From Escherichia coli (GTDB lineage: Bacteria > Pseudomonadota > Gammaproteobacteria > Enterobacterales > Enterobacteriaceae): 64,000 nt of DNA. The translations under genes were made by a program, and so were the position numbers. Below the pieces are notes generated by a model. It was not told the origin of the DNA and did no database searches. It saw only the letters and a program-made list of their open reading frames with translations. The stretch lies in assembly GCF_013122565.1 (NCBI RefSeq), contig NZ_CP053258.1. One strand, given 5' to 3'. Below, in pieces: positions 13,022-23,863 of this stretch; position 1 is the first letter of the stretch; each line of letters begins with the position of its first letter.

Positions 13022-16000
13022 ATGGCAGGGAAAGCGCATGGGAACGGCGATCGTCGGGGAGATAACTCCATATGTGGATTGGGGGATCGTTTACGTCGTC
13101 TGACCGCCGGTATTTGCCTGATAACACAAACTATATTCCCTGTTATGGCCGCTGCCCCTACGCATATTAACCATGCGCATTCGGATACTGCCACGTCCCT
13201 GATCCTGCCGAATGTTAAAACTATTCCATATACCCTGGGGGCATTGGAATCGCCATCAACGGTCGCGGCACGCTTTGGTATCACCGTTGATGAATTACGT
13301 CGCCTGAATCAGTTTCGTACCTTTGCGCGGGGCTTTGACAATGTGCGTCAGGGCGATGAAATAGATGTGCCCCTCATTAACAGTAATAGCCCCGAAGCGC
13401 GCAACCTGAAAGCAATGCAGATGGAGCGCGACGGCAAAGATCCGCAAATGCAGGTCGCGGAAGTGGCGCAGCAAAGCGGAACACTTTTAGCACGCGATAT
13501 GGACAGCGAACAGGCGGCGAGTATGGCGCGTGGCTGGGTGGCTTCTTCTGCGTCTGCGCAGGCAACGGACTGGCTCAGTCGTTGGGGAACTGCACGGGTA
13601 TCTCTTGGTGTGGATGAAGATTTCAGCCTTAAAAGCTCTTCATTTGAATTTCTCCATCCCTGGTACGAAACGCCGGATAACCTAGTCTTCAGCCAGCACA
13701 CACTTCACCGTACGGATGATCGCACTCAAACCAACCACGGTATCGGCTGGCGTTATTTCACCCCGAGCTGGATGTCTGGCGTCAATATGTTTATCGATCA
13801 TGACCTGACCCGCTATCACACCCGAACCGGGATGGGCGTTGAATACTGGCGCGATTACCTGAAACTGAGCGGCAACGGTTATCTGCGCCTGAGTAACTGG
13901 CGTAGTGCACCGGAACTCGACAATGACTATGAAGCACGTCCGGCGAACGGTTGGGATCTTCGCGCCGAAGGCTGGTTACCGGCCTGGCCGCAGCTGGGCG
14001 GCAAGCTGGTCTATGAACAATATTATGGCGATGAAGTGGCGCTGTTTGGTAAAGACGAGCGACAAAATGATCCTCACGCGATTACCGCAGGTTTGAGTTA
14101 CACCCCCGTTCCCTTAATCTCCTTTAGTGCCGAGCAACGGCAGGGCAAACAGGGAGAAAACGACACCCGAATTGGTATGGAGTTGACGTTGCAACCTGGT
14201 CATTCACTGCAAAAACAGCTCGATCCGGCTGAAGTTGCAGCTCGGCGCAGCCTTGTGGGCAGTCGCTATGACCTGGTCGATCGTAATAACAATATTGTCC
14301 TTGAATATCGCAAGAAAGAGCTGGTACGGCTGACGCTGACCGATCCGCTGAAAGGCAAGCCGGGTGAGGTTAAATCGCTGGTTTCTTCCTTACAGACCAA
14401 ATATGCGCTGAAAGGTTATGACATCGAAGCCGCCTCCCTGCAATCAGCGGGCGGAAAAGTAGCAATTTCCGGCAAGGATATTCAGGTCACTATTCCTCCC
14501 TACCGATTCACGGCAATGCCTGAAACCGACAACACTTACCCGATAGCGGTTACAGCGGAAGATTCGAAAGGAAATTTCTCCCGGCGTGAAGAAAGTATGG
14601 TGGTCGTGGAAAAACCCACACTAAGCCTCACCGATTCAACGCTTTCTGTCGATCTGCAAATCCTGCTTGCTGATGGAAAATCAACCTCAACGCTGACCTA
14701 TACCGCGCGAGATTCCAGCGGCAAGCCAATCCCCGGTATGACGTTAAAAACACAGGTGAAAGGTTTGCAGGATTTCGCCTTAAGCGAATGGAAAGACAAC
14801 GGTAACGGAACCTATACCCAAATAGTTACCGCCGGGAAGACGTCTGGCGCGTTATCGCTGATGCCGCAATTTAACGGCGACGATATCGCTAAGACGCCAG
14901 CGCTGATAGCCATTGTGGCGAATACGGCATCCCGTGCTGACTCCACGATTGAGACAGACCAGGATAATTACGTCGCGGGTAAGCCGATAGTCGTTAAAGT
15001 GACCCTGAGAGATGATAACGGCAACGGGGTTACCGGACGAAAAGAACTTCTCAAACAAACCGTTAAAGTAGACAACACGAAGGCTGATGCCGTTAGTGCA
15101 TGGACGGAAGAAAGTGAGGGAATTTACAAAGCAAGCTATACGGCCCATCTCATTGGCGACAAATTAACGGCCCAGCTGACGATGCCCGGCTGGCAAACCA
15201 AACATTCGGATGCGTTCAGTATTGCGGGTGATAAAGATACCGCCAAAATCGCTGCGATGCAGATCACCGCGAATAACGCAGTTGCCAGACGCGATCACAA
15301 TACCGTCGCTGTGACGGTCAGGGATGTGCATCAAAATTTACTGCAGGGACAAAATGTTACCTTCACGGTCGTGAATGGTGCGGCGGTTTTTGCCGATCCG
15401 AATGGCGGTATTGTGACGACAGATAAAGACGGGATTGCCAGCGTTAACCTTGCCAGTGACCAGGCGGTAAACAGTCTTATCAAGGCCGAGATCAATGGCA
15501 GTAGTCAGTCTGTGGAAGTGAGCTTTATCACTGGCGATATCTCGCAGCTGACTTCCACCATCAAGACGGACGATGTGTCATACACCGCGGGTGGCAAGAT
15601 AAAAGTGTCAGTCACCCTTATGGATGAGCAGAAAAACCTGGTGAAAGGGATGGCTTCGCTGCTGGCGGGTAGCGGTGTGGTCGAGGTGAGCGGTACAGAT
15701 AAAAATGAAACGGGTAACTGGAGCGAAGAGTCTGACGGCGTTTATACCACCACCCGAACCGCGAAGATTGCTGGCGATCGCCATTACGCCACGCTGAAAC
15801 TATCGACATGGAGTAGCGCGCAGCAATCCGATGCGTATGCCATCCGCGAAAGCAGTGCTGTGCTGGCTGATTCCTCCATCGTTACCGACAAAACGACCTA
15901 CACCGCGGGCGGTGCGATAAAAGTTACGGTGACACTCAAGGATAGCTTTGAAAACCTGGTCGGGGGGCAACGAGACGCTATCAACCAGGCTATCCAGCTG

Positions 16001-23863: not shown

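Follow-up and report, generated by a model that had tools for sequence, protein, structure and literature searches.

Background

Large inverse autotransporters of the YeeJ and IatD class have been linked with biofilm formation (PMC6714894). One giant surface adhesin of Escherichia coli is already known and has been described under three names, air, eaeX and iatC, with surface exposure, biofilm, adherence and aggregation as the published roles of its orthologues. The name iatC was given by Goh et al. 2019 in strain SMS-3-5 (EcSMS35_4024; 8802 bp, 2934 aa), and the protein was detected by immunofluorescence at the surface of a K-12 host, where it led to strong biofilm (PMC6714894). According to the summary of Sheikh et al. 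2006 in PMC7058095, mutants of eaeX and eilA in enteroaggregative E. coli (EAEC) 042 showed less adherence and less biofilm, and EilA regulates air/eaeX and controls the selC-B genes. The number of Big repeats in the gene varies by strain (Fox et al. 2020, PMC7058095), and air serves as a routine virulence marker of EAEC, by PCR and in silico (PMC3256949; bioRxiv 10.64898/2026.04.21.719883). Here, a 10.8-kb open reading frame (ORF) is compared with these systems. It lies in a stretch of 64,000 nucleotides of E. coli (RefSeq assembly GCF_013122565.1, contig NZ_CP053258.1), which is referred to as the window. An initial annotation made from the sequence alone had interpreted the ORF as an inverse autotransporter with a very long Ig stalk and a lectin-like tip. 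This interpretation is supported by the present analysis, although less firmly for its LysM-like and signal-peptide parts than for the rest.

Identity of the gene

The ORF listing of the window contained, as the initial annotation had stated, a single ORF of 3613 aa at 13022..23863. It lies on the + strand with an ATG start, and its translation had zero internal stops. With high confidence, this ORF is an intact copy of air/eaeX/iatC, and its product is an inverse-autotransporter (type Ve) adhesin belonging to the family of intimin and invasin. The NCBIfam model of the IatC N-terminal equivalog domain (NF040978) scored 3050.8 bits over a cutoff of 2400 and was aligned along its entire length (1-1065 of 1065), starting at residue 1. 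The NCBIfam models for intimin, YrIlm, Ilp, SinH and YchO all remained far under their own cutoffs for this protein.

Of 5426 complete E. coli genomes, 754 matched the 5' 2.5 kb of air, each at one site that was always chromosomal, with identities of 98.5-98.9% in the 15 best-matching genomes. Among the matches listed, the annotation was “EaeX/Air” or “IatC”, with only one carrying a generic inverse-autotransporter name. Identity to six annotated alleles was 98.1-98.7% over the N-terminal 1150 aa; over the C-terminal 716 aa, identity to annotated alleles was 82-96%. RefSeq annotates air automatically; the assignment is of little weight as a discovery and useful as a correct annotation.

A fragment of the gene was also encountered outside E. 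coli genomes. Positions 1-3972 of contig JAIJJM010000277.1, from a Collinsella metagenome-assembled genome, were 96.9% identical to window positions 12716-16687. The contig runs from the nepI 3' end across the intergenic region and through ~3.7 kb of the iatC 5' part, stopping within the first array unit, and by this content it is evidently a mis-binned Escherichia fragment.

Beta-barrel and Ig-like domains

The intimin/invasin-type barrel that had been placed in residues ~150-450 was confirmed by Pfam IAT_beta, which matched aa 149-423 with E=2.7e-108. Residues 186-430 could be aligned to two barrels of known structure, that of invasin (4E1T, E=5.7e-80) and that of intimin (4E1S, E=4.2e-68). 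Every Ig domain was located C-terminal of the barrel, as is required for an inverse autotransporter. The coordinates of all features are collected in Table 1.

Against the roughly 30 Ig-like domains that had been proposed, 31 were counted, comprising 7 proximal domains, 18 in the array, 5 Invasin_D3-like and 1 invasin-D4-like, in addition to one C-type-lectin-like domain. The proximal seven consist of one D00-like domain followed by Invasin_D3-like and Big_1 domains in alternation. Their bounds were set by self-built hidden Markov models (HMMs) at 531, 633, 736, 837, 943 and 1046, and the intimin_all profile reaches aa 529. Big_1 domains numbered 20 in total (2 proximal and 18 tandem), with full-length matches at E=2e-14 to 1e-21.

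Table 1. Features of the air/eaeX/iatC gene and its immediate surroundings, in window positions
Feature	Position	Strand	Details and evidence
Shine-Dalgarno-like AGGGA	13011..13015	+	6 nt upstream of ATG; identical in six other alleles
air/eaeX/iatC coding sequence (CDS)	13022..23863	+	3613 codons + stop; ORF, NCBIfam match, RefSeq orthologues at same locus
Extended signal peptide (less firm)	13022..13150	+	aa 1-43; by inspection, hydropathy
LysM-like periplasmic segment (less firm)	13223..13375	+	aa 68-118; weak profile and PDB matches
Inverse-autotransporter beta-barrel and linker	13466..14311	+	aa 149-430; Pfam, PDB matches
Seven non-identical Ig-like domains	14312..16471	+	aa 431-1150; Pfam, self-built HMMs
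18 exact tandem Big_1 units	16472..21709	+	291 nt / 97 aa each; aa 1151-2896; Tandem Repeats Finder (TRF)
992-nt exact direct repeat, copy 1	16571..17562	+	Self-comparison
992-nt exact direct repeat, copy 2	18317..19308	+	Self-comparison
Five ~105-aa Invasin_D3-like Ig domains	21710..23281	+	aa 2897-3420; self-built HMM, E=1e-44 to 1e-49 each
Invasin-D4-like Ig domain	23282..23569	+	aa 3421-3516; Pfam Invasin_D4 E=1.8e-11, 1CWV alignment, AlphaFold2 (AF2) strands
C-type-lectin-like tip (invasin D5 / intimin D3 type)	23570..23860	+	aa 3517-3613; Cys3532, Cys3609; AF2, Foldseek
Hairpin, 14-bp stem and T-run	23875..23916		In the 51-nt air/eilA gap; one site vs 0.1 expected in shuffles
eilA, HilA-family regulator	23915..25612	-	NCBIfam NF009037, 949 bits vs cutoff 589; RefSeq

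Distal domains and lectin-like tip

Beyond the array, Pfam Invasin_D3 gave weaker matches to the five ~105-aa domains than the self-built HMM, and no match for the fifth. The last ~190 residues were aligned to domains D4-D5 of invasin (1CWV, E=2.1e-19). When the C-terminal 213 aa served as query, a word-index search of proteins yielded no more than 7 clusters, most of them fragments, and an exhaustive search of a representative library of 1.8 billion proteins was used instead. From the 357 homologues found in this way, 26 homologous C-terminal modules were taken for the tip alignment. The AF2 model built from it had a mean pLDDT of 90, and its best Foldseek match was again invasin 1CWV (E=5.4e-16, TM score 0.80, rmsd 2.6 A, 203 columns), followed by four intimin tip structures, including 3NCX, 1F00 and 2ZQK, at E~1e-8. 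The two cysteines of the tip, Cys3532 and Cys3609, are the equivalents of the disulfide-forming Cys907 and Cys982 of invasin and were kept in 25/26 and 22/26 homologues, respectively. The lectin-like tip suggested for this protein was thereby upheld in both sequence and fold. The AT-rich character that had been ascribed to the C-terminal region was likewise found, as the GC content along the gene went from 0.50-0.55 in the first 3 kb to 0.59-0.64 in the repeat region (0.61) and fell to 0.40-0.42 in the last 1.4 kb (22500-23999).

The resemblance to invasin raises the reading that the protein acts like its Yersinia counterpart, with the tip attaching to beta1 integrins of the host and inducing uptake. 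Its closest relative in sequence as well as in fold is invasin D4-D5, and the equivalents of Cys907 and Cys982 are present. In invasin, Asp911 and Asp811 are both needed for high-affinity integrin binding, a role reportedly established in the work of Leong and Isberg and by Hamburger in 1999. At the aligned columns, however, Asp911 is replaced by Gln3536 and Asp811 by Ala3437. Because both integrin-binding aspartates are replaced, invasin-type integrin binding by this tip appears unlikely from the alignment. In K-12, moreover, IatC showed no binding of extracellular-matrix proteins (PMC6714894). Taken as a whole, the invasin-like reading is considered very unlikely.

Big_1 repeat array and its accuracy

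TRF resolved the array at a period of 291 with 18.0 copies and zero indels, and the spacing was 97 aa throughout. The units had a mean pairwise nucleotide identity of 86.5%, and each of them matched Big_1, full units with E=1e-18 to 1e-21 and unit 13, which was split between two scans, with 1.3e-09. Among the polymorphic columns of the units, 63/119 were at third codon positions, which points to coding constraint.

Self-comparison revealed a perfect direct repeat of 992 nt, the copies of which are offset by six units (1746 nt), so that units 8 and 9 repeat units 2 and 3 exactly. In six other alleles, the longest in-register self-repeat was only 23-272 nt. The duplicate either arose very recently, by gene conversion or duplication, or was introduced in error during assembly. 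Short-read assemblies are prone to fail on a region of this type, in which 291-nt units at ~86% identity fill 5.2 kb and include a 992-nt duplicate, and repeats of 992 nt are longer than short reads. In the case of an assembly error the gene would be real, but units of its Big_1 array would have been duplicated or collapsed, and 18 units and 3613 aa would not be the true allele. Against this stand the intact frame and a period of exactly 291 nt across the whole array. Equal or near-equal lengths were also found in independent complete genomes, namely a CDS of 10842 nt in PapRG-06-5, a match span of 10842 nt in A10 and spans of 10839 nt in many further genomes, with the CDS confirmed for LR-28. 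Recent gene conversion or duplication, furthermore, accounts for the exact repeat equally well. Only a small chance is given to mis-assembly.

Allele variation between strains

Annotated CDS lengths in six other genomes were 3807, 3613, 3612, 2740, 2351 and 2070 aa. Full-coverage match spans were 10842, 10839, 9969, 9966, 9675, 9093, 8223 and 7056 nt, each of them separated from the 10842 nt of the present allele by a whole number of 291-nt steps, in some cases with a further 3 nt, and the sampled alleles carried about 2 to 20 Big_1 units. Since the 18-unit size class is common, the length of the present allele is not suspicious in itself.

In comparison with the same-length allele of PapRG-06-5, the gene flanks were 96-100% identical and the array only 81-90%. 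Best unit-to-unit identities between the units of four other alleles and those described here were 85-94.5%, with none above 94.5%. Almost all unit bases (5226/5238, 99.8%) were nevertheless shared, column for column, with units of other alleles. Within each other array, 84-100 of the 119 polymorphic columns segregated, and all four gametes were observed in 52% of informative column pairs. These patterns identify the array as a recombinant mosaic drawn from an old shared pool of polymorphism, not from new mutation, and without one-to-one unit orthologues across strains. A diversity-generating or programmed mechanism for the repeat variation was also considered and rejected, since the shared bases and the four gametes make ordinary intragenic recombination enough.

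Start codon, probable signal peptide and LysM-like segment

The initial annotation had found the first 50 residues atypical for a signal peptide and had left the start in doubt. The unusual appearance was borne out, as residues 1-22 form a charged, glycine-rich extension ahead of the signal segment; the doubt about the start was not. The same ATG is annotated by RefSeq in all six alleles fetched, the IatC model aligns from residue 1, and the Shine-Dalgarno-like motif is conserved (Table 1). The sole in-frame alternative start, a TTG at codon 20, was rejected for want of such a conserved motif: its only Shine-Dalgarno-like sequence is GGAGA, 17 nt upstream, which is particular to the present allele and reads GGCGA in the others. 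The annotated ATG is probably the right start.

Residues 23-43 follow the ordinary n-h-c layout of a signal peptide, with RLRR, the 17-residue hydrophobic stretch LTAGICLITQTIFPVMA and A, and with small residues at -3 and -1. The hydropathy maximum was at aa 28-40. By this layout, cleavage would likely occur after VMA and before the next A, near aa 43. Long N-terminal extensions are usual in the intimin/invasin-type family. The atypical N-terminus is therefore read as a probable extended signal peptide, not as evidence of a wrong start.

A LysM-like region had also been proposed, and the corresponding sequence is present at aa 68-118, with low statistical support of its own. Pfam LysM gave only a partial match (E=0.14). 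LysM proteins in the PDB matched the segment at E=4e-4 (4UZ2), E=2.8e-3 (4XCM) and E=0.025 (LytE, 8I2E). The top two PDB rows of this search were designed repeat proteins and were set aside as irrelevant. Single-sequence AF2 prediction of the N-terminal periplasmic segment gave an all-helix model with a pLDDT of 52, which is uninformative on LysM. For IatC/EaeX, a LysM domain has been reported from ScanProsite and InterPro scans (PMC7058095, PMC6714894).

Genomic neighbourhood and regulation

The gene is preceded by nepI and followed by the convergent eilA and then eipD, eipC, eipB and eicA, an order that was the same in two annotated genomes. In both of these, eilA is followed by a gene for a needle-tip protein of the IpaD/SipD type, a hypothetical gene and a translocon gene of the SipB/YopB type, and the longer of the two records continues with a SycD-type chaperone gene, yicS and nlpA. 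Farther downstream, the window contains yicS, nlpA, yicL, setC and tRNA-Sec. The locus is the selC-B/eip island of the literature, whose position next to eilA is described in PMC7058095.

The genes eilA, eipD, eipC, eipB and eicA appear as full-length ORFs (565, 449, 376, 593 and 165 aa, respectively; 23915-30877, - strand), and the ETT2 island (E. coli type III secretion system 2) itself lies outside the window. In strain PE164, eilA is frameshifted. In composition, air is itself a mosaic, with its 5' third at the E. coli average GC and a tip that resembles the rest of the island; GC values of 0.35-0.40 persist downstream through eilA and the eip genes (22500-30000 region).

The hairpin in the gap between air and eilA is probably a terminator common to the two convergent genes. 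On the + strand ahead of the gene, a promoter scan gave no match, a result that fits activator-dependent expression through EilA and is not proof of it.

Linkage to these genes brings in an intimin-like reading, in which the tip binds a receptor that the bacterium itself delivers via the ETT2 type III system and the adjacent eip translocators. The linkage to eilA and eipB/C/D/eicA is conserved, co-regulation by EilA is reported (PMC7058095), and the tip fold also matches Tir-binding intimin domains (3NCX, 2ZQK, E~1e-8). No Tir-like gene was seen at the locus, however, and the NCBIfam intimin profile (NF033627, intimin_all) reached 428.6 bits against a cutoff of 1400, covering only the barrel and D00. 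IatC also formed biofilm in K-12, where no functional type III secretion system was supplied (PMC6714894), and in ST69 proteins secreted by ETT2 went undetected (PMC7058095). Altogether this reading is judged extremely unlikely. A speculative extension of it, which is given equally little credence, would see air, eilA and the eip genes as an intimin-Tir-like arrangement in which the tip, having lost the integrin-binding aspartates of invasin, recognises a partner delivered or exposed by ETT2/eip and the recombination-driven stalk length tunes reach past capsule and O-antigen. The preferred reading remains that of an air/eaeX/iatC adhesin with the roles published for its orthologues.

Other observations concern the wider window. 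Two small overlapping ORFs are found at 10742-11408 (-), between yicN and nepI. Their RefSeq orthologues are a RelE/ParE-family toxin and a helix-turn-helix antitoxin, and the second ORF had sub-threshold NCBIfam matches only, to MqsA- and NadS-type models. The tRNA-Sec gene (selC) is located at 35359-35453 (-), with core genes (yicI ... spoT, recG) directly after it, and no island was apparent at selC itself. The 24-kb core stretch 34000-58000 showed at most 98.4% identity to any of the 5426 complete E. coli genomes. The lineage of this DNA is therefore not closely represented among them, and it may be a divergent one, for example Escherichia clade I, in which air is reportedly common.

Proposed mechanism

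With the type Ve domain order and the barrel and tip homology to solved structures observed here, export, insertion and rod formation are expected to proceed as in the rest of the family. The extended signal peptide would direct Sec transport across the inner membrane, the small LysM-like periplasmic segment would probably contact peptidoglycan, and the 12-stranded beta-barrel (aa ~186-430) would insert into the outer membrane. The C-terminal passenger would then be exported through the barrel, with sequential domain-by-domain folding. The predicted product is a rod of 31 Ig-like domains, ~110 nm long, that would hold the Ig and C-type-lectin-like superdomain at its tip beyond lipopolysaccharide and capsule. 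This length was obtained from 32 domains at ~3.6 nm per domain, as the five-domain rod of invasin measures 18 nm. Between strains, stalk length changes by gain or loss of 291-nt Big_1 units, and intragenic recombination reshuffles the units.

Several points weigh against reading the ORF as an intact, functional adhesin of this kind. The best whole-gene match reached at most 92.1% identity among the complete E. coli genomes in the collection, a value that is this low because the repeat array is a mosaic. Support for LysM is weak in the present analysis, and, given the 992-nt duplicate, the assembly may have miscounted the units by a few. For the present allele, expression, adhesion and the secretion of so long a passenger (3613 aa) are extrapolated from shorter orthologues, SMS-3-5 IatC (2934 aa) and EAEC 042 Air. 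In K-12, SMS-3-5 IatC showed neither autoaggregation nor binding of extracellular-matrix proteins (PMC6714894), which makes “adhesin” a provisional label as regards a ligand.

Comparison with known systems

Invasin of Yersinia pseudotuberculosis (4E1T, 1CWV) shares the secretion type with the protein described here, as well as the barrel (E=6e-80) and the tip superdomain (E=2e-19, TM score 0.80) with its cysteines kept. It differs in having 5 extracellular domains, as opposed to 32 here, and in the integrin-binding residues Asp911 and Asp811, which are Gln and Ala in the present protein. Invasin is 986 aa long and is not known to have a LysM domain.

Intimin of enteropathogenic and enterohaemorrhagic E. 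coli (4E1S, 1F00, 2ZQK) has a LysM-barrel-Ig-lectin layout like that of the present protein, where the first part is only LysM-like, with a barrel match of E=4e-68 and a tip fold match of E~1e-8. The intimin_all model stays far from its cutoff, its best stretch spanning only aa 149-529 in a profile of 939 positions. The context of Tir and the locus of enterocyte effacement is not present here, and the stalk is ~8x longer. The ORF is, as had been noted from the sequence alone, far longer than either intimin, taken by the length of its NCBIfam profile, or invasin.

YeeJ and IatD of E. coli and YrIlm of Yersinia ruckeri belong to the same class, with LysM (here a LysM-like segment), a barrel and many Big_1 domains, and YeeJ and IatD also have a lectin cap. 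They occupy different loci and form different families, with lengths of 2359 aa for YeeJ and 1747 aa for IatD. YrIlm has near-identical Ig repeats too, whereas its N-terminal model scored 411 bits against a cutoff of 750 for the present protein.

Air/EaeX/IatC of EAEC 042 and SMS-3-5 is the gene described here, in the same chromosomal position with nepI on one side and eilA on the other. The IatC model is passed, and the domain order agrees, with a probable signal peptide, a LysM-like segment, the barrel, Big domains and the lectin tip. Compared with SMS-3-5 IatC (2934 aa), the present allele has 18 Big_1 units, 7 more by arithmetic. From other air alleles, it differs only as an allele, by its unique mosaic of units and its 992-nt exact internal duplication.

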